Under the pieces are notes generated by a model that saw nothing but the letters and a program-made list of their open reading frames with translations, was not told the DNA's origin and ran no database searches. From Amphibalanus amphitrite (Eukaryota): a DNA stretch of 64,000 bases. Where the stretch lies: positions 729,297 through 793,296 of the forward strand of contig NW_024881521.1 in NCBI RefSeq assembly GCF_019059575.1. Direction: 5' to 3'. This document shows, in pieces, positions 1-49,910 of this stretch. Made by a program: the position numbers and the translations under genes. The first letter of the stretch is position 1. Every line of letters starts with the position of its first letter.

Positions 1-3000
1 GTCAGTTCTGACAGTCCGAGCGGCCGCGGGGTTTCATCTTGCTGTGCTGGCACGCCGGGCGGCCGTGGGGCCATTGGGTCGCCTAAGCCGGTGCTGGCAG
101 GCCGGGGAGCCTTGGGGTCCCTCCTGTCGGTGCTGGCAGGTCGGGCGGCCTTGGGGTCGCCCCTGTTGGTGCTGGGAGGTCGGGCATGCCTAGCGGCCTT
201 TGGGTCGCCTCTTCTGGTGCTGGCAGGTCGGGCAAGCCGGGCGGTCGTGGGGGTCACCTCTGCCGGTGCTGGCGGGTCGGGTGGCCGTGGGGTCGCTTTG
301 TTTCGTGCTGGCAGGCCGGGCGGCCATGTTTTCGTCCCTGTCAGTTCTGACAGTCCGCGCAGTCGCGGGGTTTCATCTGTCTGTGCTGGCAGGCCGAACA
401 GGCCGGACGGCCTTGGGGTAGCCTCTGCCGTAGCTGGCAGGCCGGGCAGCCGTGGGGTCGCCTCTGCCGGTGCTGGCAGGTCGGGCAGGCCGGGCGGCCA
501 CGTTGTCGCCTCTGCCGGTGCTGGCAGGCCGGACGGCCTTGGGGTAGCCTCTGCCGTAGCTGGCAGGCCGGGCAATTCGGGCGGCCGTGGGGTCGCCTCC
601 GCCGGTGCTGCAAGACCAAGTGGCCGTGGGGTCGCCTCCTTGGGTGCTGGCAGGTCAGGCTTCCTTGGGGTTGCCCCTGTCGGTGCTGGGAGGTCGGGCA
701 GGCCGGGCGGCCACGTTGTCGGCTGTCGCCCATGTTGGTGCTGGGAGGTCGGGAAGCCTGGCGGCCTTTGGGTCGCCTCTTCTGGTGCTGGCAGGTCGGG
801 CAAGCCGGGCGGCCGTGGGGTCACCTCTGCCGATGCTGGCGGGTCAGGCGGCCGTGGGGTCGTCGTTGCCGGTGCTGGCAGGCCGGGAGGGCGTGGGCTC
901 AACTCTGCCGGTGCTGGCAGGTCGGGCGGCCGTGGGGTCGCCTCATTTCGTGCTGGCAGGCCGGGTGGCCACGTTTTCGCCTCTGTCAGTTCTGACAGTC
1001 CGAGCGGCCGCGGGGTTTCATCTTGCTGTGCTGGCACGCCGGGCGGCCGTGGGGCCATTGGGTCGCCTAAGCCGGTGCTGGCAGGCCGGGGAGCCTTGGG
1101 GTCCCTCCTGTCGGTGCTGGCAGGTCGGGCGGCCTTGGGGTCGCCCCTGTTGGTGCTGGGAGGTCGGGCATGCCTAGCGGCCTTTGGGTCGCCTCTTCTG
1201 GTGCTGGCAGGTCGGGCAAGCCGGGCGGTCGTGGGGGTCACCTCTGCCGGTGCTGGCGGGTCGGGTGGCCGTGGGGTCGCTTTGTTTCGTGCTGGCAGGC
1301 CGGGCGGCCATGTTTTCGTCCCTGTCAGTTCTGACAGTCCGCGCAGTCGCGGGGTTTCATCTGTCTGTGCTGGCAGGCCGAACAGGCCGGACGGCCTTGG
1401 GGTAGCCTCTGCCGTAGCTGGCAGGCCGGGCAGCCGTGGGGTCGCCTCTGCCGGTGCTGGCAGGTCGGGCAGGCCGGGCGGCCACGTTGTCGCCTCTGCC
1501 GGTGCTGGCAGGCCGGACGGCCTTGGGGTAGCCTCTGCCGTAGCTGGCAGGCCGGGCAATTCGGGCGGCCGTGGGGTCGCCTCCGCCGGTGCTGCAAGAC
1601 CAAGTGGCCGTGGGGTCGCCTCCTTGGGTGCTGGCAGGTCAGGCTTCCTTGGGGTTGCCCCTGTCGGTGCTGGGAGGTCGGGCAGGCCGGGCGGCCACGT
1701 TGTCGGCTGTCGCCCATGTTGGTGCTGGGAGGTCGGGAAGCCTGGCGGCCTTTGGGTCGCCTCTTCTGGTGCTGGCAGGTCGGGCAAGCCGGGCGGCCGT
1801 GGGGTCACCTCTGCCGATGCTGGCGGGTCAGGCGGCCGTGGGGTCGTCGTTGCCGGTGCTGGCAGGCCGGGAGGGCGTGGGCTCAACTCTGCCGGTGCTG
1901 GCAGGTCGGGCGGCCGTGGGGTCGCCTCATTTCGTGCTGGCAGGCCGGGTGGCCACGTTTTCGCCTCTGTCAGTTCTGACAGTCCGAGCGGCCGCGGGGT
2001 TTCATCTTGCTGTGCTGGCAGGCCGGGCGGCCGTGGGGCCGTTGGGTCGCCTATGCCGGTGCTGTCAGGTCGGGTAGCCTTGGGGTCACTCCTGTCGGTG
2101 CTGGCAGGTCGGGCGGTCTTGGGGTCGCCCCTGTTGGTGCTCGGAGGTCGGGCAAGCCTAGCGGCCTTTGGGTCGCCTCTTCTGGTGCTGGCAGGTCGGG
2201 CAAGCCGGGCGGTCGTGGGGGTCACCTCTGCCGGTGCTGGCGGGTCGGGTGGCCGTGGGGTCGCTTTGTTTCGTGCTGGCAGGCCGGGCGGCCATGTTTT
2301 CGTCCCTGTCAGTTCTGACAGTCCGCGCAGTCGCGGGGTTTCATCTGTCTGTGCTGGCAGGCCGAACAGGCCGGACGGCCTTGGGGTAGCCTCTGCCGTA
2401 GCTGGCAGGCCGGGCAGCCGTGGGGTCGCCTCTGCCGGTGCTGGCAGGTCGGGCAGGCCGGGCGGCCACGTCGCCTCTGCCGGTGCTGGCAGGCCGGGCA
2501 GCCGTGGGGTCACCTCTGCCGGTGCCGCAAGGCCAAGTGGCCGTGGGGTCGCCTCCTTCGGTGCTGGCAGGTCGGGCGGCCTTGGGGTCGCCCCTGTCAG
2601 TTCTGGCAGTCCTGGTGGCCGCGGGATTTCATCTGTCGGTGCTGGCAGGCCGGACAGGCCGTGCGGCCGTGGGGTCGCCTCCTTCGGTGCTGGCAGGTCA
2701 GGCTCCCTTGGGGTCGCCCCTGTCGGTGCTGGGAGGTCGGGCAGGCCGGGCGGCCACGTTGTCGGCTGTCGCCCCCGTTGGTGCTGGGAGGTCGGGAAGC
2801 CTGGCGGCCTTTGTATCGCCTCTTCTGGTGCTGGCAGGTCGGGCAAGCCGGGCGGCCGTGGGGTCACCTCTGCCGATGCTGGCGGGTCAGGCGGCCGTGG
2901 GGTCGTCTTTGCCGGTGCTGGCAGGCCGGGCGGGCGTGGGGCCGTTGGGTCGCCTATGCCGGTGCTGGCAGGTCGGGCGGCCTTGGGGTCGCTCTTGTCG

Positions 3001-3170
3001 GTGCTGGCAGGTCGGGCGGCCTTGGGGTCGCCCCTGTCGGTGCTGGCAGGTCAGGAGGCCTTGGGGTCTCGCCCCTGTCGGTGCTGGCAGGTCGGGCAAG
3101 CCGGGCGGCCGTGGGGTCACCTCTGCCGGTGCTGGCTGGCCGGGCGGCCATGTGGGGTTGGGTCGCCTCT
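1..3170. repeat. Higher-order tandem repeat: 984-bp unit x ~3.2 copies, built from 39/45/48-bp GC-rich subunits (consensus ggtgctggcaggYcgggcRgccgtggggtcgcctctgcc)
   Basis: Positions 1-60 recur at 985-1044 and ~1969-2028. ORF-track peptides from copy 1 and copy 2 are identical (200..421 = 1184..1405). Copy 3 carries small in-frame indels. Long ORFs occur in several frames on both strands, so the ORFs are not treated as coding evidence. Confidence 0.9.
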
Positions 3171-4047
3171 CTTAATGCTGGGATGTCGAAAGGTAGGTGG
3201 GAAGATCCCGCCCCTGATCGTCCTACTTCACCAGAACTCGCTCGACTCTACTCCTGATTTCACATTTTTCTTTAGCTGCACGTGGACCTTTGGTCCGTAT
3301 TTTTTTTTTTTATCGTTTCAGTCCTAAACCTCTTCAGAGACCAAGTCTGCTCCTAAAGCGCAATTTGCACACGCTTCTGATAGAGTTCACAGCGAGCATG
3401 CATCACAACAAATAAAGTAAACTATTTGATATCGCTCGTGTGGCCTTGGTCCAGGGTATGGCATGCCACCCCATACTTATCCCTACTATTTCAAGTTGGT
3501 GGTCTTGAACTTTGGTTGCTTTTATCTTACAGTTTTCCTCCATTCAAACGCCCGGATACCTACTAGAAGATATTGGTAAAACATAGAAAGGCGGCAAACG
3601 CAAGCAAGAAGGGCTTAATATATTTTTAATGCAAATTTTCCTGGCAAAATTAAACTTCTACCAAGTGTTATGCACTCACCTGAAAGGCAAAAAAGCGCAA
3701 GTGCGTAAAAGTCAGCGCGGTGATAAGCAAGAAAAGCGCAACTACTTAGTTGCGCTTTTCTTGCCTATCACATCGTCCTGACCGCTGCAGATACGCTTTT
3801 TTAATAGCTGTGTTTACGCTTTTTTTGCTTGCGGTCAGGGAGGATGAAAAACATTTACGCTTTTCTCGAAAAAGAAAATTTGATATAACTCGAAAATTAT
3901 ACGAATTTCGAAAAACGGTTTTGCAGAAAGATGGAGATTGCTATTCTCTACCTAATGGTATCAAAATCTCAAAATCGAAAAAATGCGAGTTACGCTTTTC
4001 TTGGTTGTCACGGCAGTCTTGAATAATGCAGTATCTGTTCTTTTCAG

Positions 4048-4136
4048 AATGATTTGCGCGAGTTCTGGTGTCTTCTGGACTGGGCTAACCCCGGGTGTCT
4101 CGGCACCTGTGAACAGTTCGTCAACGACTTTGTGAG
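4048..4136 (+). CDS. ERCC6L2: ERCC6L2-like SNF2 ATPase, exon a (NDLREFWCLLDWANPGCLGTCEQFVNDFV; SNF2 motif III region)
   Basis: Acceptor ttttcag|AAT at 4046-4047, donor AG|gtgagg at 4137. The peptide matches the LQNNxxELW...DWAxPGxLG region of ERCC6L2 orthologues. Confidence 0.75.
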
Positions 4137-4374
4137 GTGAGGCATCACCGTGATAATTTCCTAATAATTTCGTGGGCTTCTACCACCGGCGCCCCTCTTA
4201 GTTTTTTATCATCAATGGCTGTTTTTTTCGTGTCCTGTTATTTTGATTAGTGTTGTAGCTTGAAAAGACCGTACCACAGACAATCACAGCAAAGTGGACT
4301 TTTTCTTATCCACGTAGTGTCTGTCTGCCCCTATAGTAAATTGTACTAACGCGTCCTTCCTTCCCTGTCCCCAG

Positions 4375-4528
4375 GCCGATAGAGCGTGGTCGCCGGCGCG
4401 GTGCCGTGAAGCGGGACGTGGCCGAGTCCTGGCGGCGCCGGGAGCTGCTGGCCACAATGCGGCAGCGCTGGATGCTGCGGCGAACCAAGGCGCTCATTGC
4501 CGACCAACTGCCGAACAAGACCGACCAG
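4375..4528 (+). CDS. ERCC6L2: ERCC6L2-like exon b (RPIERGRRRGAVKRDVAESWRRRELLATMRQRWMLRRTKALIADQLPNKTDQ)
   Basis: TACTAAC branch motif at 4344-4350, acceptor ccccag|G, donor CAG|gtacgt. FLRRTK..I.DQLP.K is the SNF2 motif IV signature. Phase is continuous with exon a (AG+G=Arg). Confidence 0.85.
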
Positions 4529-4789
4529 GTACGTCAGTGTGGGGTGGAGCGGCACGGACCTGGCTAGGAGAGGGAGGAACGGAGAGGAGAGAGGACTGGG
4601 ATTTTGTTTGTTCCCAGAAATGCACTATGACCCCAAAGAGTGTTTTCTGTCCCCAGATAGTTCGTGTCTTGCTCCATCCCAAAATTAGGCACCGTACCTA
4701 CGCCCCCAGGCCCTGCTAATAGCATAGTGTGCTTCCAATTTGTAAAAGTTTACCGGTGCCCTCAAATACGGCAGCCTGTTCTGTGGTGT

Positions 4790-5023
4790 GCCATGTATTA
4801 TGTCTTTAGATGCTGTCCTGTGTTCCCTCAGATACTGTACTGTCCGCCGTCGCCGCTGTAGCGACAAGTCTACAGCGCCGTCCCCCTGTCTGCAGCTGTA
4901 TTCTGTTGTGTCTGAACATTGTGTCCTCTGTCCTCAGATAGTGTACTGTTGTGTCTGGATGCTGTGTCCTCTATCCTCAGATAGTGTACTGTTGTGTCTG
5001 AATGTAGTGTCCTCTGTCCTCAG
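4790..5023 (+). repeat. Tandem array of ~41-bp units duplicating the 3' splice site and first bases of ERCC6L2-like exon c (tgtgtcctctgtcctcagatagtgtactgttgtgtctgaa x3). A longer copy (~4823-4900) carries 60 nt of exon with an in-frame TAG.
   Basis: Direct reading shows repeated cctcagatagtgtactgt motifs upstream of the real acceptor at 5022-5023. Confidence 0.85.
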
Positions 5024-5164
5024 ATAGTGTACTGTCCGCCGTCGCCGCTGCAGCGTCAGGTCTACAGCGCCGTCCTGGACCGGCCCGATGTCCGTCTGCT
5101 GGTCCGCCGCTCCCGGCCCTGTGACTGCGGCAGCGGAAGGAGGGCGGCGCGCTGCTGCCTGAAG
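5024..5164 (+). CDS. ERCC6L2: ERCC6L2-like exon c (IVYCPPSPLQRQVYSAVLDRPDVRLLVRRSRPCDCGSGRRAARCCLK)
   Basis: Acceptor cctcag|ATA, donor AAG|gtaagg. The C.C.SG....CC motif is characteristic of ERCC6L2 (human ...EPCTCRSGQKRRNCCYK...). Confidence 0.85.
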
Positions 5165-5419
5165 GTAAGGTGCTTGTGGGGTGGTAGCGTGCTTATCACC
5201 ACTCTTTCACACCTACTGAAACTGTACTGTTTGACGTCGATTTAGAAGAGTGCTCACCTTTTGGCCCGCTCTGAAGATCTTTTTGTGCCATATTCTTCGT
5301 TAGTGAGAGATTTACCGATTTCATTTTACCATTGCCATGCTGGAAGTGTGTGTTTAATGTGGGTGCTACTGAAACCCGATGTAGTTTTTCTGAAAACGTA
5401 GTTTTCCGTGCCATTTCAG

Positions 5420-5548
5420 CACGAGTCCGGTCCGGCGGCTGGAGTAGCGCTGTCTTACATGAGCCTGCTGATGAAAGTCAGCAACCACCCGTGTCTGCTG
5501 CTGCCCAGCGGGAGCGCCTCCGCTCAGCAGAACAGGATGGCCCGTCAG
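5420..5548 (+). CDS. ERCC6L2: ERCC6L2-like exon d (HESGPAAGVALSYMSLLMKVSNHPCLLLPSGSASAQQNRMARQ)
   Basis: Acceptor tttcag|CAC, donor CAG|gtaaga. Matches LSYLTVLQKVANHVALL of ERCC6L2. Confidence 0.85.
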
Positions 5549-5934
5549 GTAAGACGGGGAACGGGACAGTAGTAGTCAACCACTAACCACCCGTGTCTGC
5601 TGCTGCCCAGCGGGAGCGCCTCCGCCCAGCAGATTAGGATGGCTCGTCAGGTGAGGATATTCAGAGACATATTTGTGTGTCTATTGGGGCGCCTCCGTAA
5701 AACAGAACAAGATGGCATGACAGGTGGGAAAAGTTAGGGACGATTTTTGAGTTAGTTGCATATGTCTGCATCAAATTAGTTGGACGGCTCGGAAGAGGGA
5801 TGCCGGGGCACGCTAGATGAGGAGCAGGAACTATGTGTACTCTGAATTGTAGTCTCTAATGTCTATACATATCTGTTGTTTATGCGTGTAATGTGCCTGG
5901 CTGTTCACGTCACCTGGCCATCGCTCTGTTGCAG

Positions 5935-6036
5935 GTCTGTCAGTCGGTGTTTGACCAGTTTCCAGAGCTGGCCCGCCTCAGCCGCTCACAGGCGTATCGT
6001 GCCCTCTCCGACCCGAAATACTGCGGCAAAATGAAG
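5935..6036 (+). CDS. ERCC6L2: ERCC6L2-like exon e (VCQSVFDQFPELARLSRSQAYRALSDPKYCGKMK)
   Basis: Acceptor ttgcag|GTC, donor AAG|gtaatg. SDPKYSGKMK is conserved in ERCC6L2. Confidence 0.85.
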
Positions 6037-6118
6037 GTAATGGAATGGTACATTAGGGTCGTCGGATATTTGTGAGGAACTGATTGATGACGAGGGTATC
6101 TTCTATCCTCCTGGGTAC

Positions 6119-6337
6119 GGTACACTCGGGGGCAGATTGATGTTCCACCACTCCCTACCCATCGGGCTCCCATGGCTCCCGCACTGGCTGCTGTCAGTGG
6201 CAGGACTGGCAGCACTGGCATTGACAGGCAGTGCTGAGCAGTGCTGAGGGCAGGCAACACCGGCAGCAGCCACTGCTGATCCATGGGAGCCCGATGGGTA
6301 GGGAGTGGTGGAACATCAATCTGCCCCCGAGTGTACC
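6119..6337. repeat. Hairpin/foldback: perfect ~57-bp inverted arms (ggtacactcgggggcagattgatgttccaccactccctacccatcgggctcccatgg) separated by ~105 bp, inside an ERCC6L2-like intron
   Basis: Left arm 6119-6175 is the reverse complement of 6281-6337. The internal segment has further dyad symmetry. No clear TSD. Confidence 0.85.
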
Positions 6338-6471
6338 TATCAACAAACTGTACTAGTTTGCTCACATATTTATGAATTAAGTGTTTGCCGAATGCTCATT
6401 CATTTTGCGATATTTTATATTGGCAATATGATAATGAAGACTGTGTGATCACACCCTGCCTTCATTTGCAG

Positions 6472-6581
6472 GTGCTGACCACCTTAATTGAGCACTTCCG
6501 TCAGAAATCTCAGAAGGTGCTGATATTCTCGTATTCCACTAGAATGCTCAAGATAATTCGGGCCTACGTATTAAATCAACA
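6472..6581 (+). CDS. ERCC6L2: ERCC6L2-like exon f (VLTTLIEHFRQKSQKVLIFSYSTRMLKIIRAYVLNQ(Q); start of helicase C domain)
   Basis: Acceptor tttgcag|GTG, donor CA|gtgagt (phase 2). KVLLFS.ST..LD is SNF2 motif IV/V context. Confidence 0.8.
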
Positions 6582-6907
6582 GTGAGTATTTCCTGGCTCT
6601 TCTTTCAACTGATTGGTTCTTCGTCGCACTACGGAACGTTTCATTGGTTCCTTCACTTGTGCGCCTTGTTTGGTTTTAGGATACAATGCAGGCATGTTTC
6701 AAAAATGAAAGATTACCTGGCTGTGTAAGGCAAGAGCACATGTCAAGCAGTTAGCTACAATATCAAATGACCAGAGCTGCTGTTGGGTGATTGATGATTC
6801 TCTTCAGAGGTTGATCGTGAACTACCACCATTTTCGGTCTCATCAGGTCACCATCACATTCTCCTGACTAATACTGTGCCCGTTTGACCTGACCCGCACC
6901 TCTCCAG

Positions 6908-7111
6908 GTTTGACCTGACCTACATTGACGGCGAGACGCCTGCCTCGGAGCGGCCGGCGCTGTGCGAGCAGTTCTGCCGCCGGCCGCAGTGGGCGGTGGC
7001 GCTAGTGTCGACCCGGGCCGGCGGCCAGGGGCTGAACATTGTGGGCGCCACGGCAGTGGTGGTGGTGGACCCCAGCTGGAACCCGGCGCACGACCTGCAG
7101 GCGCAGGACAG
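6908..7111 (+). CDS. ERCC6L2: ERCC6L2-like exon g (FDLTYIDGETPASERPALCEQFCRRPQWAVALVSTRAGGQGLNIVGATAVVVVDPSWNPAHDLQAQD(R); helicase-C motifs V-VI)
   Basis: Acceptor ctccag|G, donor AG|gtgaga. STRAGGQGLN...DPSWNPAHDLQAQDR matches the canonical SNF2 STKAGGLGLN...DPDWNP..D.QA.DR. Confidence 0.9.
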
Positions 7112-7277
7112 GTGAGAGACGGGGCTAGTACGTAACCATGGAACTTCCTCACATTTTGGCGCCGAAACCCGGCTTGTATTCGTCCAGCGTTTACTCATCC
7201 CGTCACTCAGCTCTGGTCCAGTATTTGCCCCCCGGCCATGTGATTGTGTAAGTCCGACACGGGTTGCTTGCTTACAG

Positions 7278-7365
7278 GGCGTACCGGCTGGGTCAGACCA
7301 AGGATGTGAGTGTGTTTCGACTTGTCACAGCCGGTACGATCGAGGAGAACATCTACCTCAGGCAG
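7278..7365 (+). CDS. ERCC6L2: ERCC6L2-like exon h ((R)[29 protein letters not shown])
   Basis: Acceptor cttacag|G, donor CAG|gtcagt. AYRIGQ...V.RL...GT.EE.IY.RQ is the SNF2 motif VI tail. Confidence 0.9.
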
Positions 7366-7637
7366 GTCAGTGCCAAGGGTCCTAGAACGATCATTTTAAC
7401 AATGTAGAACCAGGCTCATTTTCTGATTACTTCCTCTAGCTATTGGCTAGGGTATTTTTACCTTTAATTTTGAAAGACGTCGCATTGGAGCCCCATATTT
7501 TTGGGGAACAACGCGAAATATGCGAGTCGTTCGTTGCATTTGAGGCCTTTGTCTGCGATCGTTGGCTGCAGTGTTACTGAAATTTCTAGCCACCCACGCC
7601 TCCTGACTCTCCATCTCTTCACCTCCCCGTCCAACAG

Positions 7638-7836
7638 GTGTACAAGCAGCAGCTCTCCACCCTCGCCGTGGAGGGCGGTACCGGCCCGCGACTGTTCTCC
7701 GCCTCCGCCGGCCGACCGGGCCTGCAGGGGGAGCTGTTTGGGCTGCACAACTTGCTGCAGCTGCGGGCGGACGGCAGGCTGACAGAGGGGCTACTGGACT
7801 CACATAGGAGGGTGGAGAGGCTCCTTACTGCCGCCG
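7638..7836 (+). CDS. ERCC6L2: ERCC6L2-like exon i (VYKQQLSTLAVEGGTGPRLFSASAGRPGLQGELFGLHNLLQLRADGRLTEGLLDSHRRVERLLTAA). An alternative donor at 7908 lies in a tandem duplicate.
   Basis: Acceptor caacag|GTG. The peptide matches ERCC6L2 IYKQQL...QGELFGIHNLF. Donor CCG|gtgagg at 7837. A duplicated donor copy (GCTG|gtgagg) at 7909 has the same phase. Confidence 0.75.
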
Positions 7837-8234
7837 GTGAGGGGCCGACTGAGGGAGTGAGGGGCTGCTGGACCCACAGGAGGATCGAGAGGCTACTGAC
7901 GGCCGCTGGTGAGGGGCTGAGGGACGGCCTGATGGATCAGGGACAGATTGAGGCTCCAAAGAACTGCTGGACTTGGACGTAATTTCTGAGACTGGATAAT
8001 TTTTTACTGCTGGCGGTGAGACACTGGGACTGAGAACTGGACTGGCCTGGACTGGCCTGAAAGGCAGTTGACGGACTGGTCGATAGAGTAATAGTTGACT
8101 GAGAGACCGATGGACAGCTGCTTGATGGACTGGCCGTGAGTTTCGTTGCTATTGTTTCGGAAAATCACCATCTGGTTATGCGCCCCTCCCCCGTATCACC
8201 ACACTAGCCAGAACATCCCCCCATTCCCCACCAG

Positions 8235-8462
8235 CCGGTCACGAGGTGAGCGGAGCTCTCCCCGAAGTCCGGGAGGGTGTGGCCGGTCTCACCGTGAGCG
8301 ACTACACGGCCGTGGCGCCCGCTGGCGGCGGGGAGGCGCCATCACCGGAGGGCGCGGAGCTGCTGCCATCTGACGACGAGGTGGATCAAACTCCGCCCGG
8401 CGGCCATCGAGAGGCTGCCGTGGGCGGGGCGGAGGTGACGGCCTCCATCGACGTGGCGCTCA
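8235..8462 (+). CDS. ERCC6L2: ERCC6L2-like exon j (acidic/Ala-rich low-complexity: ...GHEVSGALPEVREGVAGLTVSDYTAVAPAGGGEAPSPEGAELLPSDDEVDQTPPGG...)
   Basis: Acceptor ccaccag|CC is phase-compatible with exon i (G+CC). Donor CTCA|gtaagt. The reading frame is open and matches ORF 8246..8476. No homology anchor. Confidence 0.5.
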
Positions 8463-8955
8463 GTAAGTCAATTTAACATTTTCTCATATTTTGATTCCAG
8501 CTGATGTTTGTATATTGCCGTTTATTGCCTAAGTTTGTATTTAGGAAAGAGATGTATTGCCTTCATTATAAGAATGGCGCACTAAACAGTCCACTTTAGA
8601 ATGTCAGTTCACCACAACAGATTGACTTCAAGAATGAGATCAGGGTCCAATCTGATAAAATGTCGTGCTATTCTATTCACGGCATTTGGTAACATTTACG
8701 GTGATACCAGTGCTGACAAAGGGTTATCCGAGTCAACGAAATGATTCTTAGGATCGTCAACTTATAATGTACTGAAATGCGTGAAAAATTTTGCATTTGA
8801 TAGCCGTTTTCTGCAGCTGAATTTCAGTCAGTGCTGCTATATCCATTCCACGGCGTTCATAAGATTGATCCCAGATCATTTCAGATCACGTAAGCTTAGT
8901 TCATAAGTGACACCTGACGTCTCTGGGCTCTGACCGCCTTCTCCCGCTGCTCCAG

Positions 8956-9110
8956 GGGACTGCGGCGTGCGCCACGTGCACGGTAACGCCCCACTCGTGG
9001 CCGCCAGCCGGCTGGAGGAGCACGTGGCGCGCCAGGCGACCCGTGCCGTGTATCAGCTGCACGCGGGCACCCAGGAGCCGGCCGAGAGGTGCGCCCCGCT
9101 GCCGCCCCAG
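8956..9110 (+). CDS. ERCC6L2: ERCC6L2-like exon k ((R)DCGVRHVHGNAPLVAASRLEEHVARQATRAVYQLHAGTQEPAERCAPLPPQ)
   Basis: Acceptor gctccag|GG gives A+GG=Arg, phase-compatible with exon j. Donor CAG|gtgagt. Supported by ORF 8967..9161. Confidence 0.5.
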
Positions 9111-9378
9111 GTGAGTCGAGAACTAATTGTACGGAGGGAACGGACTAACGGCGAACCCTGAGGAAGAGGGACGGACTTCAGAGGAATCGAAATGGGCTAA
9201 GGGTTGTTATGCTGTGTGGAGGTTAGTCAAGTGTTCACCAAAAGGATAACTAATCTCTTGAGTTATTGCTGGTTGTGGATGTTGCAATGGCGGATGACCG
9301 TGGATACCGAGTCCGACTAATGGCCAAATCATTCTTGCTGAACTCCATTAACACGCTTTTGTCTCCGTTTCTCTCCAG

Positions 9379-9589
9379 CGGAGCGGGAGCGGCCGCGGGG
9401 CCCAGCGGACGCCCCGCCAGCCTCCGCCGGTACCTCCCGGCGGCCTGCCCCGTCCGTCCGACCCGACCCCGCAGCACAGCGCGGCGATCCGGCCGTCTGG
9501 GAGCCGCAGCGGCCGCCGGCTACCCTCCGTCCTTACTGGAGAGGCCAGTCCGGCGCCGCGGGGGAGCGACGAGTCACCGGCCGGATCAG
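9379..9589 (+). CDS. ERCC6L2: ERCC6L2-like exon l (Pro/Ser/Arg-rich low-complexity)
   Basis: Acceptor ctctccag|CGG, donor TCAG|gtagga. Frame is open. Supported only by splice-phase continuity. Confidence 0.4.
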
Positions 9590-9739
9590 GTAGGACAAGG
9601 GGTGGTAGGAGGAGACAGGATTCGGGGAGAAGGAGAGAGGAGTCGGGGAGGAGGAGAGAAGAGTCGGGAGGGAGGCAGGGCTCAAGCCGGAGGAGGCAGG
9701 GCTCCGGCCAGCGGAGAACTCGTCGGCATCGACCCACAG

Positions 9740-10272
9740 TGGTGGATCAGGCTACTAGTACGGACTGGGAGGAGGCAGGGGGACTGACAGGGGCGGTAGC
9801 TGGTGACCAGAGTGGCGAGGATGCTGCTGCGCCGGCGGCGGAAGGGGCTGTGTCTGATCATGGTGCTCGAACACCTCCGACCATGGCGGCTGCCGACAGC
9901 GATGACTCGGTTGTTCTGGCCACACCGCCGCGATTAGCCACTCCGCCCCCGGTGGTGGAGATAGAAGAGGATGTCGAACACCCTGTACCCCCTCCGATCT
10001 CGGAGATCGGCCCGCGCTCACCAGAGACCGTGGTCGCCTCCAGCGGCCCCAGTACCCCCAAACGGCCGCGGACCACAGCTGCCTCAGGCGGCGGCACGGC
10101 CATGGACGCGTTCTTAGACCGGCTGCTGGAGTCTCCCGTGCGCCGCCCGCCGCCCAGCCGCCGCCCCCGCCCCCGCCCCCGCCCTATAGCCTCCGTCGTC
10201 ACTGAAGACAGGCAGGAGGGTGACGTCATCAGCCGCTGGGTCCGTGATGGGAAGGTGTCCATTGTGAAATGA
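9740..10272 (+). CDS. ERCC6L2: ERCC6L2-like terminal exon (...VVDQATSTDWEE...PRPRPRPIASVVTEDRQEGDVISRWVRDGKVSIVK*); TGA at 10270-10272
   Basis: Acceptor cccacag|TG gives G+TG=Val, phase 1 from exon l. Matches ORF 9739..10272 (177 aa). An AT-rich 3' UTR follows. Confidence 0.5.
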
Positions 10273-26200: not shown

Positions 26201-27635
26201 GATAAGGGCCACCGACCCGCCGCCCGGCGCACTATTCTCGTCCCTACGGCCGATCGACGGAGATGGATCGGTGCGGCCTATCGGAGGGCCCGATCGGTAG
26301 ATAGCCAGCTAGTTCCCCCGGAGAAATATCTCCAAAACGCGCGTCGTGCGGCGGCGACTGTCACCTGTGCGCCATTAACTGCCGCCAAAGGCTGACAGCT
26401 CATTAGGGGGACCTGACGACCACGGGGGGACAACAAACTAGTTCCAGTACAGCCGACCGCGGGAATATCGGAAAGAAACTGGAGCGGAGCGGGAACGGGA
26501 ACTGAGAGAAGAACGAGAGACGGAGCGGGGCAGCCGTGCAGCCTGAGAGCGATGACGATCGCCCGCCTTGCCGCAGTCTCCACCGGCTTGATGCTGCTAT
26601 TCCAGGCGGGCAAATGTGCCGGGCTGTGTTTTTAGAGTATGTTTAATTGCCGGTTGAATGCTTGTCGACATGAACATGTGCTTAGCGCTGGCCTCGGGGA
26701 TGTTGTTGATGCATCCGAGCGGGCCGGCACTGGCAATGAGTTGGCGGCTTTCAGGGTTGACATTCAGCCCCGCCGGAAAATATGAAAGTAATCCCGACAC
26801 AATAATTGAATAGACCGACAAAAGCGCACACATGCAAAACCAAACACGGCTCGTTCCGCGCGTAAAAAGCCCGCGTAAACAAGACGGCTGGCATTCCGGC
26901 GGGTCGACACTGAGAGGCGGTAAACGGCGCCCCGACCTTGGCCGGACACACCGCGGACACAGAAACAACAACCCGGGATCGGCGCCAGCGACAGAGGACT
27001 GCTTCCGGGAGGGACACTGTCCGCCGGGTCCTACGGGAACAGGAGACCATTGGAAGGGGGCTGCAGGACTCACAGCTCCGGATCGGGACTGTCAGAGCTA
27101 CATAACTTCAGCAGCAGCCCCAGCTCTCCAAGCTACAAGCCATGAGCCGTGCCAGCTTCCGAGCTGCAGCTGCTCGGAGCGCGGCGTGACGCCTCCTCTC
27201 CAGCAGCCGGTCACGTACATGAGCGGCCATCTTCGGCGCGCGGCACGGCGCGGCGCGGCACACCCCACTGGGAGGAGGAGCCCCGCAACACCTTCGATCC
27301 TCTCCACACTGCAACTAATAGACCCAATCTACATATGAATAACACTACCGAACCTGCACCGATGTATGAATATAAAAAGCCGACATCTTGATTAGGATCT
27401 TGAGAAGTCGTGAAGGAGCGTGGGCTCGAGCCATAAATTCGACATCGGCGACTGCCACTGACCGCATGATCCACCTGCCACGGCTCGATTGCTGTCATCA
27501 ATTAGACTCGCCGGGCGGAGGCGGCGCACCACAATGCTCACGAGTTTGACATGTCGCCGCATCAGTGTCAGCGGTGTCCGAACTCGCCACAGACGGCCTC
27601 CGCGGCCGGTCGTCCTTCCCCATGGTCCGGTCCGG

Positions 27636-27920
27636 CCTCGCAGTGGCACCACCGGCCTCGCAGGGGCACCACCGGCCTCGCAGGCATCACGGCATCACGC
27701 AGGCCGCAGGGGCACCTTGGGCCTGTCGGGGGCATCACGGGCCTGTTGGGGGCACTTAAGGCTTGTCAGGGGCACCACAGTCCTGTCAGGTCCCAGGGGC
27801 ATCAGCAGCCTAGCAGGGGCACCCTAGGCCCGCCAGAGGCTCCACAGGCCTGCCAGGGTCCAGGGGCACCACAGGCCTAGCAAGGGCACCACGGGCCTGT
27901 CAGGGGCACCTCAGGCTCCC
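27636..27920. repeat. Minisatellite, ~21-bp unit (ggggcaccacgggcctgtcag-like) x ~13
   Basis: Direct reading of 27640-27910. Confidence 0.8.
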
Positions 27921-36295: not shown

Positions 36296-36432
<137 letters not shown>

Positions 36433-39400
36433 TAGCCAGTCAGCCAGCCAGTCAGCCAGCCAGACACACAGACAGACAGATGAACGAGACCGGGAGGTGA
36501 GTCTGCTCCCACTCTGCACCGCGACGACCGCCGGAACGGAAGATCGCGGGTTGCAACAATCAGTGCGAAAGTTCAGCCCTCTACCTATAATCCTTTTCTC
36601 CTGGCGGACAGGTCCTGAGAGCTGAGAGTCCAACACATCCAAACCGCAGGCCGCACCCGCGAGGTCATGGTGTCGACAGCAATGAGAGGGGATGGGACTG
36701 GAGGGGAGGGGAGGGAGTCGCCTCGACCTTCAGTCATCACGATTAATACCGCAGCCAAACGTGGCCGGCCGGCTGACTGCAGCAGCGTAGACAACGAGCG
36801 GCAGGGAATCGGCCTGCACAGACTAATTGGTCCGCGACCAGATGACCATCCGCGGGTGGCGTCACGGGCTCATGATGACGTCAGGAGATCTCATGACGCC
36901 AGGGGATCTGATGACGTTCGAGATAGGTGAATATACCGGGCTGGTGAGGAGTCCGTCTCCAGAAGTCCCTAGTGTGTCTCGGTGCTGATACCAGCTCGTC
37001 CGCCAGGGCATGCCGTGTGTATTTGGCCAGGAAGCACTCACCCAACGAGAGCACCGGTGACGCCCCCTGAGACCTGGCATCACCCCAGTGCGTCTCGGCC
37101 GGTCGGCACGCCTCTGGCCTTACTCCAGGCCTGGGTCATGTCGGAAGGGTCGTGCCTCAGGCCACTGGCACTAACCGGTCCACCACGCCGACCCGAAACG
37201 ACGCCCACTGAGCCGCCGCCGGCAGTGATCCTGATTCATGGTCGCCGAAAAGGAAATCTCGCCTCCGAGTTTTGGTCAGTCAAGGCAATTTCAGTGAGCC
37301 ATGTGTGAAATCCAGAACCGCAAGAGCCTGGGGAAATGCTTGCACTCAGCACGATGCATATCCTCCGAAGGAGTTGTTTTCCGATTCAGGACCCGAATTC
37401 GTGGCAGTATCGTTCCCGTCTTAATGCACTAACGTCGTCGCTTCATGACTGTAGTTTGATATGCACTTCGAGTCTGACATGTAGATGGCTACTGTCTGTC
37501 TGTCGGCGCATGTAATGGAACCGCCGCACAGATACCGCCGGCCGCCTCCAGCCGCGTCTCGGCCATCTCAGCCGTCTCCGCCGCTGTCCCCTGCAGAGCA
37601 CGCCATTCCCAGCAATTACGGCACGATCATAAATACGGCGGCGTGTCCCGTCTGAGGCCGACTGAGAGCCGCGCCCGCCGCCAGCACCGGACCGAGCACC
37701 TTTACGGTCTCACCGGGCGACACTCTATCGGCCGGCGCGGTAAAACCTCGGCCCGCCGTGATAAAAGAAAATCTAATTAAGTGGAAGGCCGGAGATTCGT
37801 CCAAACAGCGCTCGTACCGGGCCCGGCAGACGTGTCGGCCGGCCGGGTCAAAATTAGCCTTCAGTTGCCGCAATAAAACGGGATGAGACCAGAGTCGGGC
37901 AGAGGGTAAGGTTAATATCCTGGGAATGCTGTCGACGCCGGCCGTACAGGAACCGCAGCTATGCGCCGCCGCCGCCGCCGCCGGTCGGTCGGAGCGCCGG
38001 CGGGCTGCGGGCCGCGCCCAGACAGCCGCCGCCGCGGCCCGGGGACACTTCAAACGCTGCTGAGTGAGTGTGACAGCGCCGCGACAGCGGAGAATCTGCC
38101 GTCGGCTCACATCACACAGCCGTCCGGATGGACGTCACCGGCGTCGGCCAAACAAAGCATAATGTGGTCTGCAGAGCGGACGACAAATCAGACGGGGACA
38201 GCTCCGGTGATGAGGCGACTGTCGGCCGGGAGAGTCGAGCCGGCCAGCGGGCGGCGCCGTGCCCTCCGTCGCATAATGGGCCCAGCGGGAGGCCGCCGGT
38301 CGGGCCGACGGCCCAGGACGCCTCCTCTGTCGCCGGAGCGGAGGAGCACACCAAACACAACAGCCGCCCGGCGCACCCCGGCGCACTCCGGCGCAGAGCG
38401 CGCTACTCGGCGCAGGTCATCCAAACAGCGCCGCGTTTCTGGCAGCGCCTCCCCGGCCCGGCTCGGCGTGGATCGCCGTCGAACGCCGGCCGTCGACAGG
38501 CAGTGTCGTCTGGCCGTGTCCAGGTGTCAGCTCGAAGGTCGCGCTCGTTCCTGAGCGCTCAGCTGTGTCGCCGTCTCGCCGCTCGGAGACACAGCGCCCG
38601 GTGTCACCTCGCTCGCCAGCTCGGCGCCGGCTCGTGTGTCGGAACAGACGAGGGGCGGCCGCGCGTGGCGGCGGTGTCGTCGAAAATTGCCAGCAATGCC
38701 ACAATTCACGCGCCCGGGAGTCTTACTAAGCTTCCGTCATCCACGCGTCCACCCCGACTCCGTCAGCCGTGATTCTACCGGCGCCGCGCGCAGCCCCAGA
38801 CGCGCACTGATTGGCTCTAATTCCTCTGCGGTCCCTGACCAAACAAAGCGGCCCGAGTGGGTTCTGAAGTCGACGGCGGCGCGGCGGCGACCGTCCGGTA
38901 AAAACAGCCATTGTGGTGTCGGCGCCGGCCCCGCCCCGTCGAGTGCTCGTTACCGGCGTGCCACTGCCGACCGGTAGAGGAGGGAGGTGTGCGCGGACGA
39001 GCGGCGAACGCTCAGAGTCAACAGGTGTGAGACGCGCGGTCGGCTGCCGGGTCAGACAGACGGGTCGATCGACATGGCGTCACCGGGGCAACACTGGAGT
39101 ACAACAGTCTGCGAGAGGGAACTAAAAACGGTCGACTGAGCTCGCCGGCTCGCTCGCCGGATTGCACAACTCGTCTGTGTGCTCTGACAGGGGAGTGAGT
39201 AAGGGGAGGGGAGTGACCGGGTGGATCGGAGCCCCGGGAGCGCTCTCGGTCAACTGCAGAGACCCTTCTGAGCTCTGACGGCTCCCGCAGCGGTGCCGAT
39301 CTCGGCGACAGCTCGCCACGGGCGGCCGAGGCTGCGCACCGCCCCGCCCGGCCGGGGTCCGCCGGCGACGGCAGAAATAAAACAGTGCATTACTCGCTTC

Positions 39401-40494
39401 CGGTGCCGGCGGCGACGTTTTGTTTTTGCACGGCGGCGGCGGACGATCATGAAAGGCGGCGCCGGGGCACCCCGCGGCCCCGGCTCAGCCGGATCTCCGC
39501 GACGGGCGCGGACGGCCGACCGGCAGTCACAGGCAGAGGATCACGGTCGAGGGAACTTCCGTCGCCCGTGAGCCCTCGGCTGCCGGCGATCCGCTCCGCC
39601 CGCTCCTCAGCGCTGGCCTAATTCCATGTTGTCAAATCCGAAAATTGGCGACTGGACGACAAGATGAATGATGAGCTGGCCCGCACGCCACTATCGCCCC
39701 TATCGGCTATCGGCAGCCGAAGGGCCACGGGCTAGGTTCGTGTGCGTCAGCTGAACGGTAATGAAGTGGGATGCTCCCGGTGTGGGATACGACTTTCGAC
39801 CTTCCTGCCGTGCTCCTCGGCACACCTGAGGGCGATTTTCTCATGCGCTGCCCGCTCTGCCTTCGGGTGCGTTGGCGGCGACTCGCGTGGAAGATGGCCG
39901 ACCAGCGATTAGACGCTTATTTTATTAACAGAACTAGCCGCTTTCCGTATAAGCGCCGTAAATAAATGAGCCAGGAGACGAAAACAAACACAGTGATCGT
40001 CCATGGCTCCGCAGTGATAACGGCCGATTGCCGCCGAAACAAAGGCCCGGGGCCGGGCGGCGGCGGCGGGCGCTTGGTGATGACTCGCAGCCCACGAGCC
40101 GGGCTATCAGTTCTCCCAGGGACGGCGCACCGCTCCGGGCTGGACGCGTGCCTCGTCCGGCCACAGACTGCCCGTCTATCTGCTGCCCTATCTGCGTGTG
40201 TGTCACCACACTTGCCAGGAACAGATAGCACGGGAGAGTGATGACAGACTGCGTCTAAACTGGGGTCGCCGAACCGACCGGGCCGCCACAGGTCGCCGCC
40301 TCTGATGGACTGGCATGTCAGACAGTACCGCTGTGTTTGTATATCTATCTTGTCTGTCAATATCCACCTTACTGTCCCAGGAGCTTCTCAGTCTTTACAA
40401 CGTCGATAGTCCTTCACGCATGATTCACAGCAGTCGCTCTACGCCCTCCTAGTTCCTACCAACCCTCAGTGCCTTCCAAGTCATACCACCCCTG

Positions 40495-40735
40495 CCGCCT
40501 CTCAGTGCCTCCCTCCGCCCCCAGTGCCTCCCTCCGCCTCCCTCCGCCCCCAGTGACTCCCGCCGCCTCTCAGTGCCTCCCTCCGCCTCCCTCCGCCCCC
40601 AGTGACTCCCGCCGCTTCCCTCCACCCCATCCAGCGCCTCCCGCTGCCTCTCAGTGCCTCCCTCCGCCTCCCTCCGCCCCCAGTGACTCCCGCCGCTTCC
40701 CTCCACCCCTTCCACCGCCTCCCGCTGCCTTCTGC
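40495..40735. repeat. C/T-rich minisatellite (~70-80-bp units: cagtgcctccctccgcctccctccgcccccagtgactcccgccgc...)
   Basis: Direct reading. Accounts for the long ORFs on both strands at 40449-41129. Confidence 0.8.
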
Positions 40736-46769: not shown

Positions 46770-49700
46770 ATGCCTGTCGAGTTGCAGAGCAGCCGATGCA
46801 TGACGCAGACCGGGTGTGTATGTGTGTGTGTGTGTGGGGGGGGGGTGCGTGTGTGTGTGTGTGTGCGTGTGTGTTAAGCGCAAAGTGGCCGAGGCGTCGG
46901 CAGCGGACCAGGTGTGTAGTGAAGACAGAGTGGCCGAGGCGTCGGCAGCGGACCAGGTGTGTAGTGAAGACAGAGTAGCCGAGGCGTCGGCAGCGGACCA
47001 GGTGTGTAGTGTAAACAGAGTAGCCGAGGCGTCGGCGCCGGACCGGATGTATGCGTATGTCGATGCAGAAATACGGAGGCGGCCACTTAGAAAATACTTG
47101 AGACCTTTTTACAAAGAGACTCCTTGAGTGCTAAACCGAGCCTCCAAGGTGACTGGCTGAGATGTGTTTCTGCGGCAGCGTATGTCCATCAAGTTGCGTT
47201 CGGAAGCGCTTCTCGAAATGCGTGGTCTGTTTTGACAAGGGGCATTATCCTAAAGCTGGTCTCTGAGGCAAAAAAAAAGAGATGCTGTTTTCCAGTCCCG
47301 GCGAAGAAAAAAAAAAGAATGTCGAGTTGCAGAGCAGCCGAGGCGTCGGCGGCGAACCTGTTGTATATGTATCTACGTATGTATGTATGTATGTATGTAT
47401 GTATGTATGTATGTATGTATGTATGTATGTATGTATTCACGTCATAGGGCACATCCCCGTAATTGAGGCTTTCCTGTACCCTGGAGTCGTTAATATAAAA
47501 CAGACGATCAGTTGGGTCAGCATACACATACATACACATGCACACACGTGCACCCACATGCACACATCTAACCAACCCCCCACGTTGCCTCGTCAACAAG
47601 TGCTGCTTTATCTCGCTATTGAAGCGGCTCCCAGGCAGGTTTCGTGTCACGCTTAGCAAGATGTTATATGCGATGACAATAGCGTGTCTGAACTACGCCT
47701 GCCAGACTCCAATCGAATCGCCGGCGTGACTAAATGGTCTGCGTTCCGTGTTGTACGGTACGGCGGTGAACATCTCCACGAGTGACCAGGTCGCCGGCGA
47801 TCGACTCAGGCTCTGATGTCACTAAAAGGCGCTTTAGTAAGCTAAGTGCCTACCGTGTTGCAGAGGGCCGAGGTGACGGCGGCGCACCTGGCCCTGTAAA
47901 TTGCAGAGTAGCCGAGGCGTCGGCGGCGGGCCTGATGCGTGTGCATGGGTTGCAGATTAGCCGAGGCGCCGGTGGCGGACCCGATGTGTGCAGGGGTTAC
48001 AGTGCAGCCCAGGCGTCGGCGGCGGGCCCGATGTATGTGCATGAGTTGCAGAGTAGCTGAGGCGTCGGCGGCGGTCCTGATGTACTTACGTGCAAGGGTT
48101 GCAGCGTAGCCGAGGCGTCAGTGGCGGACCTGATGCGTGTGCGTGAGTTGCAGAGTAGCCGAGGCGTCGGCGGCGGGCCTGATGTATGTGCCGTTGCAGA
48201 GTAGCCGAGGCGTCGGCGGCGGACCTGATGCATGTGCAGTTGCAGAGAAGCCGAGGCGTCGGCGGCGGACCTGATGTATGTGCCGTTGCGGAGTAACCGA
48301 GGCGTCGGGGGCGGACCTCATGCATGTGTGTGAGTTGCAGAGTAGCCGAGGCGTCGGCGGCGGACCTCATGTACGTGCGAACATGGGTGGAGAATTGTTT
48401 TCAAAGTTGGTATGGCGCCAGTTGCTTGAAACAATACTATCGTGTTTTATTCTTATCAAACTGAAAACCTTAAATTTCGTAGCTTTTACCCTGAAAAAGT
48501 TGGTATGGCATTGCCATACCATCTTTTAAGTTGGTGTGGCGCGTGCCATGCCTGCCATACCATATTCTCGACCCATGCCGGTGCAGAGTTTATGGGGTGG
48601 CTGAGGCTATACGACGGCGAGCCTGATGTGTGTGCATGAGTAGCAGAGGAGCCGAGGCGTCGGCGGCGGACCTGATGCAAGTGCATGAGTTGCAGAGTAG
48701 CCGAGGCGTCGGCGGCGGACCTGATGTGTGTGCGTGATTTGCAGAGTAGCCGAGGCGTCGGCGGCGGACCTGATGTATGTGCGTGATTTGCAGAGTGGCC
48801 GGGGCGTGTCGGCGAACCTGATGTGTGTGCGTGGGTTGCAGAGTAGCCGAGGCGTCGGTGGCGGACCTGGTGTATGTGCAGTGCAGAGTAGTGATGTCAA
48901 CTACGGAAAATCGGAATACCGATACCAAACCAAGTACCAACCTAGGGTGCATTATACCAACAAATTACCGAACACATTAGGAATCAAATACCAAGTACCG
49001 AGTTGGTATCAGTATGGTATCGGTATACCGAAAAGTTGTATCCGAGGACATCTCTACTGCAGAGTAGCCGAGGCGTCGGCGGCGGACCTGATGCATGTGG
49101 GTGCCGAGGCGTCGGCGGCGGACCTGATGTATGTGCGGTGCAGAGTAGGACGTCGACTACGGAAAAATCGGAATACCGATACCAAACCAAGTACCAACCT
49201 AGGGTGCATTATACCAACAAAATACCGAACACATTAGGAATCAAATAGCAAGTACCGAGTTGGTATCAGTATGGTATCGGTATACCGAAAAGTTGTATCC
49301 GAGGACATCTCTACTGCAGAGTAGCCGAGGCGTCGGCGGCGGACCTGATGCATGTGGGTGCCGAGGCGTCGGCGGCGGACCTGATGTATGTGCGGTGCAG
49401 AGTAGGACGTCGACTACGGAAAATCGGAATACCGATACAAAACCAAGTACCAACCTAGGGTGCATTATACCAACAAAATACCGAACACATTAGGAATCAA
49501 ATAGCAAGTACCGAGTTGGTATCAGTATGGTATCGGTATACCGAAAAGTTGTATCCGAGGACATCTCTACTGCAGAGTAGCCGAGGCGTCGGCGGCGGAC
49601 CTGATGCATGTGCGTGCCGAGGCGTCGGCGGCGGACCTGATGCATGTGCGTGCCGAGGCGTCGGCGGCGGACCTGATGCATGTGCGTGCCGAGGCGTCGG

Positions 49701-49910
49701 CGGCGGACCTGATGTATGTGCGTGCCGAGGCGTCGGCGGCGGACCTGATGCATGTGCATGAGTATTTATGTGCGTGAGTTGCAGAGTAGCCGAGGCGTCG
49801 GCAGCGGGCTTGATGTATGTGCAGTGCGGAGTAGCCGGGGCGTCGGACGCATTGCAGTTGCAGAGTAGCCGAGGGGTCGGCGGCGGACCTGATGTGTGTG
49901 CATGAGTTGT
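46770..49910. repeat. Composite satellite block. It contains a 45-bp unit x3.5 (46885-47045). A ~49-bp monomer (gagttgcagagtagccgaggcgtcggcggcggacctgatgtatgtgcgt) forms arrays at 47880-48370 and 48620-48890. A ~245-bp higher-order unit x3 lies at 48895-49630, and a 31-bp sub-array at 49560-49905. (GT)n sits at 46814-46874 and (ATGT)n at 47376-47436.
   Basis: Direct reading. Identical ORF-track peptides at 49003..49248, 49260..49493 and 49516..49761 confirm the ~245-bp period. Confidence 0.85.

Follow-up and report, generated by a model that had tools for sequence, protein, structure and literature searches.

The repeats lie in the 3′ part of a predicted ERCC6L2-like gene

The repeats described here are located in a gene on the forward strand of a 64-kb stretch of DNA, the whole of which (64,000 nt) was analyzed and is called the window below. 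Thirteen exons, designated a to m, could be joined via GT-AG introns, and together they form a single open frame with 780 codons (4048-10272, +), which ends with the TGA stop codon at 10270-10272 in exon m (Table 1). The product of this gene matched the Pfam domains SNF2-rel_dom (E = 9e-16) and Helicase_C (E = 5e-19), and its top protein matches were animal ERCC6L2 proteins from Branchiostoma, Lottia, birds, and Trichoplax, with 45-47% identity. Judged by these matches, the predicted product is an animal ERCC6L2-like SNF2 helicase of the DNA-repair type. The model comprises the 3′ part of the gene, while the N-terminal half of the protein falls outside the 64-kb window. The exons are rich in GC, which reaches 0.80 at third codon positions versus 0.485 in the introns. 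This contrast, together with a similar distance of the product from all of the animal orthologues, suggests an animal lineage of unusual base composition. The twelve introns counted in the preliminary description fit the 13-exon model, although the number could also be eleven, as the 150-nt segment at 9590-9739 is in frame and free of stops.

The searched collections contained no protein with more than 48% identity to the conserved half. The C-terminal half used as a protein query gave a single weak match and neither a close relative nor a transcript, and a search of metagenome contigs returned distant homologues only. A scan of the entire 64-kb window against Rfam gave no matches.

Table 1. 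Exons of the ERCC6L2-like gene and units of the repeats at its splice junctions (positions in the window)
Feature	Positions	Strand	Remarks
Exon a	4048-4136	+	open frame, GT-AG
Exon b	4375-4528	+	open frame, GT-AG
Pseudo-copy of exon c acceptor and 52 nt of exon	4814-4883	+	contains a stop (TAG)
Minisatellite with 43-nt unit	4903-5035	+	3.1 copies; repeats the acceptor and first 12 nt of exon c
Exon c	5024-5164	+	open frame, GT-AG
Exon d	5420-5548	+	open frame, GT-AG
Exon d 3′ end and donor, authentic copy	5483-5553	+
Exon d 3′ end and donor, second copy	5585-5655	+	93%
Exon d 3′ end and donor, third copy	5686-5725	+	78%
Exon e	5935-6036	+	open frame, GT-AG
Exon f	6472-6581	+	open frame, GT-AG
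Intronic 13-mer GTTTGACCTGACC	6882-6894	+	putative branch-site zone of intron f/g
Spacer CGCACCTCTCCAG	6895-6907	+	pyrimidine tract and AG of the exon g acceptor
Exonic 13-mer	6908-6920	+	first 13 nt of exon g
Exon g	6908-7111	+	open frame, GT-AG
Exon h	7278-7365	+	open frame, GT-AG
Exon i	7638-7836	+	open frame, GT-AG
Exon i unit 1	7785-7858	+	last 52 nt of exon i, donor 7836/7837 (CCG/gtgagggg), 22 nt of intron
Exon i unit 2	7859-7924	+	head-to-tail with unit 1, 88% identical; donor 7908/7909 (CTG/gtgagggg)
Exon j	8235-8462	+	open frame, GT-AG
Exon k	8956-9110	+	open frame, GT-AG
Exon l	9379-9589	+	open frame, GT-AG
Exon m (stop)	9740-10272	+	open frame, GT-AG

Extra copies at exons c and d are non-coding

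The acceptor of exon c was struck twice, as it is repeated both in a copy spaced by 192 nt and in the array of 43-nt units. An extension of the former into a 192-nt periodic array around exon c was considered and rejected beyond 4814-4883, the further matches at 4639-4661 and 5223-5239 being marginal. The 3′ end of exon d with its donor is present in three copies, and reading through from exon d to the second donor copy encounters two stop codons. The in-frame stops in the extra copies of exons c and d identify them as non-coding passengers.

A perfect 13-nt repeat abuts the acceptor of exon g

The repeat previously noted at the start of exon g is real, as the 13-mer GTTTGACCTGACC is present without mismatch in both the intronic and the exonic position, 26 nt apart from start to start. 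With up to one mismatch allowed, these 2 matches were the only ones in the 64-kb window, while shuffled sequences were expected to yield 0.12 and none of 100 reached 2. The two copies are parted by the 13-nt spacer CGCACCTCTCCAG, which is unrelated to the sequence flanking either of them; no source for it was found elsewhere in the 64-kb window, where the best other matches have 2 mismatches. Because this spacer has no homologue, the repeat is not a clean tandem duplication, and the adjacency of copies expected of such a duplication is seen only in part. The earlier reading of this site as a duplicated junction holds for the exonic 13-mer, which is indeed repeated, but not for the acceptor, since ccc rather than ag precedes the intronic copy; the junction is abutted by the repeat and not spanned by it.

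The exonic copy supplies the G that completes a split Gln codon and then codes for F D L T. Its left edge coincides exactly with the first base of exon g, for which our own rough arithmetic gives a chance of about 0.05 per gene. The intronic copy carries the motifs TTGAC and CTGAC, which precede the AG by 20 and 15 nt, and either may serve as a branch site. Further branch-site candidates are found upstream of the intronic 13-mer in intron f/g. Both copies are located at the 3′ end of this 326-nt intron, which is itself not flanked by them, and no inverted repeats were found at 6880-6920. The arrangement could reflect a 26-nt insertion with fill-in that survived thanks to a new acceptor brought in by the insert.

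The donor of exon i is included in a head-to-tail duplication

The preliminary description had reported that the donor block of exon i, GAGAGGCTCCTTACTGCCGCCG/gtgagggg (7815-7836/7837-7844), recurs 72 nt downstream, and it was found there as GAGAGGCTACTGACGGCCGCTG/gtgagggg (7887-7908/7909-7916). Gapped alignment widened the pair to 7785-7856 versus 7859-7924, in which 58 of the 66 aligned bases are identical (88%) and two indels occur; the alignment score was 74, compared to 17.0 ± 2.7 for shuffles. As the two units are adjacent (7856-7858 / 7859), they constitute a clean head-to-tail duplication with a unit of about 74 nt. Unit 2 begins directly after the donor region of unit 1 and is followed by about 310 more bases of intron i/j. 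It carries a 2-nt deletion in its exon-derived part and a 4-nt deletion past the donor, and it is because of the former that the two donors are spaced by 72 rather than 74 nt. The motif GAGGGGC is found in the exon i units at 7785, 7839, 7859, and 7911, and no inverted repeats were found at 7785-7930. A possible extra copy of the unit at 8004-8020, with 15 of 17 bases matching, was within the range of shuffles and was rejected.

The donors at 7836 and 7908 are alike from position -1 to +8 (G/GTGAGGGG) and differ at position -2 alone, so that CCG/GTGAGGGG and CTG/GTGAGGGG stand 72 nt apart without an intervening stop, and donor 7908 is equal in consensus strength to donor 7836. The identical phase that had been claimed for the two sites was borne out, as the extension of 72 nt, or 24 codons, keeps the frame and has no stops. 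Exon i extended to 7908 would gain 24 residues, GEGPTEGVRGCWTHRRIERLLTAA, which repeat the preceding HRRVERLLTAA motif.

These properties raise the question of whether donor 7908 functions as an alternative 5′ splice site, alone or together with 7836, which would produce an isoform with a 24-residue insertion in which HRR(V/I)ERLLTAA is repeated. We regard this as a tentative possibility, on balance doubtful. The near identity of the donors and the open, in-frame extension agree with it, as does the 2-nt deletion, which turned a frameshifting 74-nt unit into an in-frame unit of 72 nt; however, 24 stop-free codons are not unusual in GC-rich DNA. Of two equally strong donors, the one nearer to the acceptor is often preferred, and this was counted in favor of 7908. 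On the other hand, the upstream donor of exon d must be productive despite the copies downstream of it, which indicates that the choice of splice site in this gene is not determined by proximity. Homologues carry the HRRVERLLTAA-type motif once, and a search of the collections found no transcript or protein of the source organism or a close relative.

The pattern of substitutions between the units was also considered in this respect. The exon-derived parts differ at 8 of 50 aligned sites, yet the donors and the following 8 bases are identical, and within the last 34 nt third codon positions account for six of the seven substitutions; of these six, five are synonymous and one changes a codon from V to I. 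This bias could be taken as a weak hint of constraint, but the exon d copy, which is surely non-coding, shows a like bias (3/4), and coding constraint on unit 2 was rejected on this ground. Since a third-position bias is expected when only one of two copies is constrained, it was not taken as evidence. The use of 7908 as an alternative donor is compatible with a neutral origin of the duplication, and the two can coexist.

The excess of repeats at junctions is modest at most

For all 24 junctions of the gene, the sequence within ±35 nt of each was scanned against ±400 nt. Nearby copies spanning the junction were detected at acceptor c (z = 32), donor d (z = 19), and donor i (z = 16), and at none of the other junctions scanned. 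With the repeat that abuts acceptor g, the four affected junctions counted previously are confirmed. The gene contains seven local clusters of direct repeats, four of which touch a junction. In the gene region 17 ungapped direct repeats (score of at least 13, distance 8-400 nt) were observed, compared to 0.03 per 6.7 kb of sequence shuffled with preservation of dinucleotides.

The four affected junctions had been called a striking concentration, which did not prove robust: four null models expected 1.1-2.8 junction matches versus the 4 observed, with P = 0.026-0.27, and these P values come from a single gene chosen for its pattern, are uncorrected for this post hoc selection, and take no account of the slower decay of exon-anchored than intron-only copies. 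Exon-anchored copies are detectable for longer because the constrained exon slows their divergence. Random shifting of the clusters within the gene led to an expectation of 2.5 clusters and 2.8 junctions (P = 0.18-0.27). When single units were placed at random, with intron-only and one-junction placements kept, 1.8 were expected, and P was 0.044 for at least four and 0.24 for at least three. Sliding the template of 24 junctions over the remaining window gave a mean of 2.1 (P = 0.17 for at least four), and omission of the placements overlapping the satellite at 46.8-49.9 kb lowered the mean to 1.07 (P = 0.026), which makes four junction matches nominally unusual against the non-satellite background alone. 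The excess of junction matches is modest at most and compatible with chance.

The preliminary description had itself allowed that a sufficiently high density of minisatellites would account for four junction hits by chance, and the density observed is largely of this kind, with 44 local-duplication clusters in 64 kb. TRF gave 175 rows for the 64-kb window among the matches listed, and 25 more. Outside of the gene the window contains many two-copy units of 10-110 nt, and its parts without a recognizable gene carry equally dense duplications. Repeats cover 11.8% of boundaries in the gene versus 4.3% in the non-satellite background, which is about 2.7 times more. The window yielded no second gene model for the junction test, as its long ORFs look spurious in GC-rich DNA, and a scan of codon-position composition over the window recovered the ERCC6L2 exons alone. 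With about one junction per 260 nt of the gene, the probability that a duplication of 40-190 nt includes one is 15-65%. The ratio of exonic to intronic nucleotides is 52:22 in the exon i unit, and 12:31 and 52:18 in the exon c units, and because the placement of the junction inside the units is arbitrary, the term junction-centered used for these duplications was too strong.

A mutational process that is targeted to junctions in this genome, and generates duplications preferentially at exon-intron boundaries, appears improbable in the light of these data. Such a process might be driven by slippage or microhomology between recurring splice-consensus or G-rich motifs (GAGGGG is found at the unit starts and at both donors), or possibly by DNA damage coupled to transcription or splicing at sharp boundaries of GC content. 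Two of the nulls gave a nominal excess (P = 0.044 and P = 0.026), which points in this direction, but the other nulls gave P = 0.17-0.27, and the comparison concerns one gene (n = 1) picked post hoc. Although the same junctions were struck repeatedly, acceptor c by two events and donor d three times, repeat events at one spot are expected once a tandem repeat exists. The four GAGGGGC motifs of the exon i units and the orthologues from Trichoplax and Lottia, which are without such events, are also in agreement with a targeted process, while the arbitrary junction positions in the units and the equal density of duplications in parts of the window without a recognizable gene argue against it.

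The affected introns are probably not products of the duplications

The introns of the ERCC6L2 loci of Trichoplax and Lottia were mapped and the same repeat scan was applied to these loci. The positions of introns c/d, e/f, and g/h are shared, exactly or nearly so, with Trichoplax and Lottia, and those of b/c, d/e, and h/i are only a few codons away from introns of these species. Intron f/g has no counterpart in either of them, and intron i/j is past the end of their gene models. The repeat scan found no local duplications in the Trichoplax gene, and in the Lottia gene it found intronic satellites only, with 0 at junctions. The fact that old introns are affected alongside some that may be lineage-specific suggests that the duplications are secondary and not traces of intron birth. 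The lack of junction duplications in Trichoplax and Lottia suggests that the repeat load belongs to the genome or region rather than to the gene family.

That introns can be gained through tandem genomic duplication is accepted (PMC3443670; PMC4974935; PMC3265369), and short direct repeats have been reported as a mark of intron gain during break repair (PMC3443670). [quoted passage not shown] In the Rogers model, the duplicated AGGT sites delimit the intron, the 5′ end of which copies the start of the downstream exon and the 3′ end of which copies the end of the upstream exon. The present cases resemble it in that an exon-derived tandem copy with functional-looking splice signals is contained in an intron. 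They differ in that the introns appear to predate the duplications and the duplicate is located inside an existing intron beside the authentic site. The Rogers layout is not matched, because in no intron do the two copies of one duplicated segment make up the two ends; the cross-intron pattern was found at 0 of the 24 junctions, where only same-side copies were seen (acceptor c, donor d, and donor i). The exon i copy lies just past its donor with about 310 intronic bases beyond it. While the missing counterpart of intron f/g in Trichoplax and Lottia would fit a recent gain, the two 13-mers are 26 nt apart at the 3′ end of this 326-nt intron and not around it, and several affected introns coincide with or lie close to ancient shared positions. 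The perfect 13-nt direct repeat around a short unrelated insert at 6882-6920 is similar to the repeats described for break repair in Daphnia (PMC3443670), but in contrast to the repeats of new Daphnia introns the 13-nt insert is here in the 3′ end of an existing intron that is not flanked by the repeat. Terminal inverted repeats were absent from 6880-6920 and 7785-7930, and the 64-kb window contained no dispersed copies. A transposon or Introner with target-site duplication was also considered for the 13-mers and was rejected, as they flank 13 nt only, have no further copies in the window, and are free of inverted repeats.

Explanations of the repeats by chance matching, by low sequence complexity, or by an artefact of assembly can practically be dismissed, for although the sequence is GC-rich and repeat-rich and the 13-nt repeat is short, shuffles preserving dinucleotides almost never yield such matches, the repeated sequences are not of low complexity, and the larger copies differ by 7-14% and by indels, unlike artefactual duplicates.

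Probable origin of the repeats by internal tandem duplication

From the repeats, their layout and significance, their effects on the reading frame, and the local repeat density, we infer the mutational mechanism, the neutrality of the events, and the splice sites in use as follows. The most probable reading, to which we assign a probability of about 0.7, is that the repeats are small internal tandem duplications of an ordinary sort, located in a region prone to repeats, which include or abut existing splice junctions. They would have been made by replication slippage or unequal exchange, for which the GAGGGGC motifs of the exon i units could have served as misalignment points. At exon i, a segment of about 74 nt, consisting of 52 nt of the exon, the donor, and 22 nt of the intron, would have been duplicated head to tail, with unit 2 staying in the intron as a decoy or a potential alternative donor. 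Later deletions of 2 nt and 4 nt would then by chance have set the two GTs 72 nt apart and in frame. At exon g, a 26-nt event would have left another copy of the initial 13 exon nt in the 3′ end of the intron, ahead of the pyrimidine tract and AG. The divergence of about 7-14% between copies suggests old events that have been drifting apart, and it rules out an assembly artefact. The tolerance of the duplications is explained by the outer, authentic splice site, through which the original mRNA is still produced. Three features of the gene could explain why junction-containing events are common: its exons and introns are of short length, selection eliminates duplications confined to exons, and a copy that is anchored in an exon under constraint remains recognizable longer.

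Internal gene duplications that contain splice sites or whole introns are common in eukaryotes, according to the study of Gao and Lynch (2009, PNAS 106:20818) as it is cited in later work (PMC4974935; PMC3443670). The present cases are internal duplications including existing splice sites, and belong to this known kind. The exon i units have the features of such duplications, as the copies are adjacent, their similarity is far above chance, and they comprise an authentic site with both exon and intron sequence. The exon g repeat departs in one feature, since it begins at the first base of the exon and no acceptor was copied. As in the duplications of the Gao and Lynch type, to the extent that the citing papers describe them, a short head-to-tail copy takes in part of an exon with its splice site and provides an additional site that could be used, with the original mRNA unchanged. 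Unlike in those accounts, several events occurred here within one gene of 6 kb in a minisatellite-rich region, and the repeat at exon g is not cleanly in tandem.

The repeats are also similar to intronic minisatellites, with which they likely have a common mutational origin. The window contains arrays with units of 10-260 nt, and the acceptor of exon c itself is located within the array of 3.1 copies of 43 nt. The exon g and exon i repeats are different from minisatellites in having two copies each, and they are not among the TRF rows listed (minimum score 30). The donors of exon i additionally resemble pairs of alternative 5′ splice sites, in that they are equal in consensus, share the same phase, and are separated by 72 nt of open frame. 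Unlike a cryptic site created by a point mutation, this pair arose from a duplication.

Significance

The features of this gene are real and of a kind already known, while the claim of their concentration at junctions was overstated. For annotation, placing the end of exon i at 7836 or at 7908 makes a difference of 24 residues in the protein, and gene predictors may be led astray by decoy acceptors ahead of exon c and by decoy donors downstream of exon d. If an enrichment at junctions were true genome-wide, it would indicate that splicing signals and tandem duplication are mutationally linked, a result of broader interest for the evolution of introns. A process targeted to junctions, if true, would be a systematic engine of intron growth, of decoy splice sites, and of in-frame donors like 7908. 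Under the preferred reading of ordinary internal duplications, this case shows how such events can make spare splice sites without damage to the gene, and in this way provide raw material for alternative splicing.

Duplicated splice sites and repeats around the helicase gene

Every copy of the exon c acceptor and the exon d donor retained its AG or GT dinucleotide, and the use of any of the additional acceptors or donors would bring in stops or frameshifts. The minisatellite upstream of exon a is GC-rich (GC 0.72) and G-skewed, and it is further organized into a higher-order repeat of ~984 nt, with positions 985–1968 almost the same as 1–984. As the window lacks the gene's 5′ half, this array is presumably intronic. 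Farther downstream, (GT)n and (TATG)n microsatellites flank a block of related satellites, and three other arrays, (ACAG)45, the 81-nt C-rich repeat and the 20-nt repeat, are surrounded by GC-rich, apparently non-coding DNA. These three arrays indicate that the entire region is prone to tandem repeats.

Splice-site copies, inverted repeats and tandem repeats, with positions in the window
Feature	Position	Details
Minisatellite (TRF)	1–3180	very large; ~39-nt unit, 74 copies
Near-perfect palindrome	3717–3771	25 nt, GTGATAAGCAAGAAAAGCGCAACTA/reverse complement, 2-nt loop; AT-rich intron preceding exon a
Exon c acceptor, 4 copies	within 4814–5035	4831, 4942, 4985, authentic 5023
Exon d donor, 3 copies	within 5483–5725	5548, 5650, 5723
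Foldback element	6119–6337	intron e/f; 60-nt inverted arms, 98% complementary, 99 nt between arms
867-nt segment	10514–11380	directly 3′ of stop codon; 22-nt terminal inverted repeats, 95% complementary
20-nt repeat array	27632–27917	
(ACAG)45 array	36299–36480	
81-nt C-rich repeat array	40490–40730	
Block of related satellites	46800–49950	units 45, 49, 36, 257 nt; common core GCCGAGGCGTCGGCGGCGGACCTGATG

Inverted repeats were also found in and next to the gene. The center of the foldback element holds small GCAGTGCTGA-type repeats, and the element may represent an insertion resembling a MITE or a sequence that folds into a hairpin. Both ends of the 867-nt segment read TTAA-AGGTAGTGTGCCA..., and the segment resembles an inserted small DNA transposon or MITE whose TTAA target has been duplicated. 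A third arm related to the palindrome lies 244 nt downstream of it, in the same intron (3988–4014).

No second protein-coding gene was recognized between positions 12000 and 64000 (~52 kb, ~60% GC) by long ORFs and codon-position composition, which are crude scans that genes with short exons could escape. This part is either gene-poor or carries short-exon genes missed by such methods.

Intron positions and intron number

When exon i was compared with the homologous proteins P0005–P0019, many predicted vertebrate ERCC6L2 isoforms were seen to terminate at ...DILEV, which suggests that in vertebrates an intron directly follows DILE. The equivalent point in the barnacle gene, GLLD, is in the interior of exon i, and the intron is located 12 codons further on.

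The reading frame continues in phase and without stops through the putative intron l/m (9590–9739, 150 nt), a segment rich in both GC and purines that consists mostly of 21-nt repeats and has a poor pyrimidine tract. This segment may belong to the coding sequence or be an intron that is retained, and therefore the gene may have 11 rather than 12 introns in the window. If the segment were kept in the mRNA, it would specify an Arg/Ser/Gly-rich stretch.
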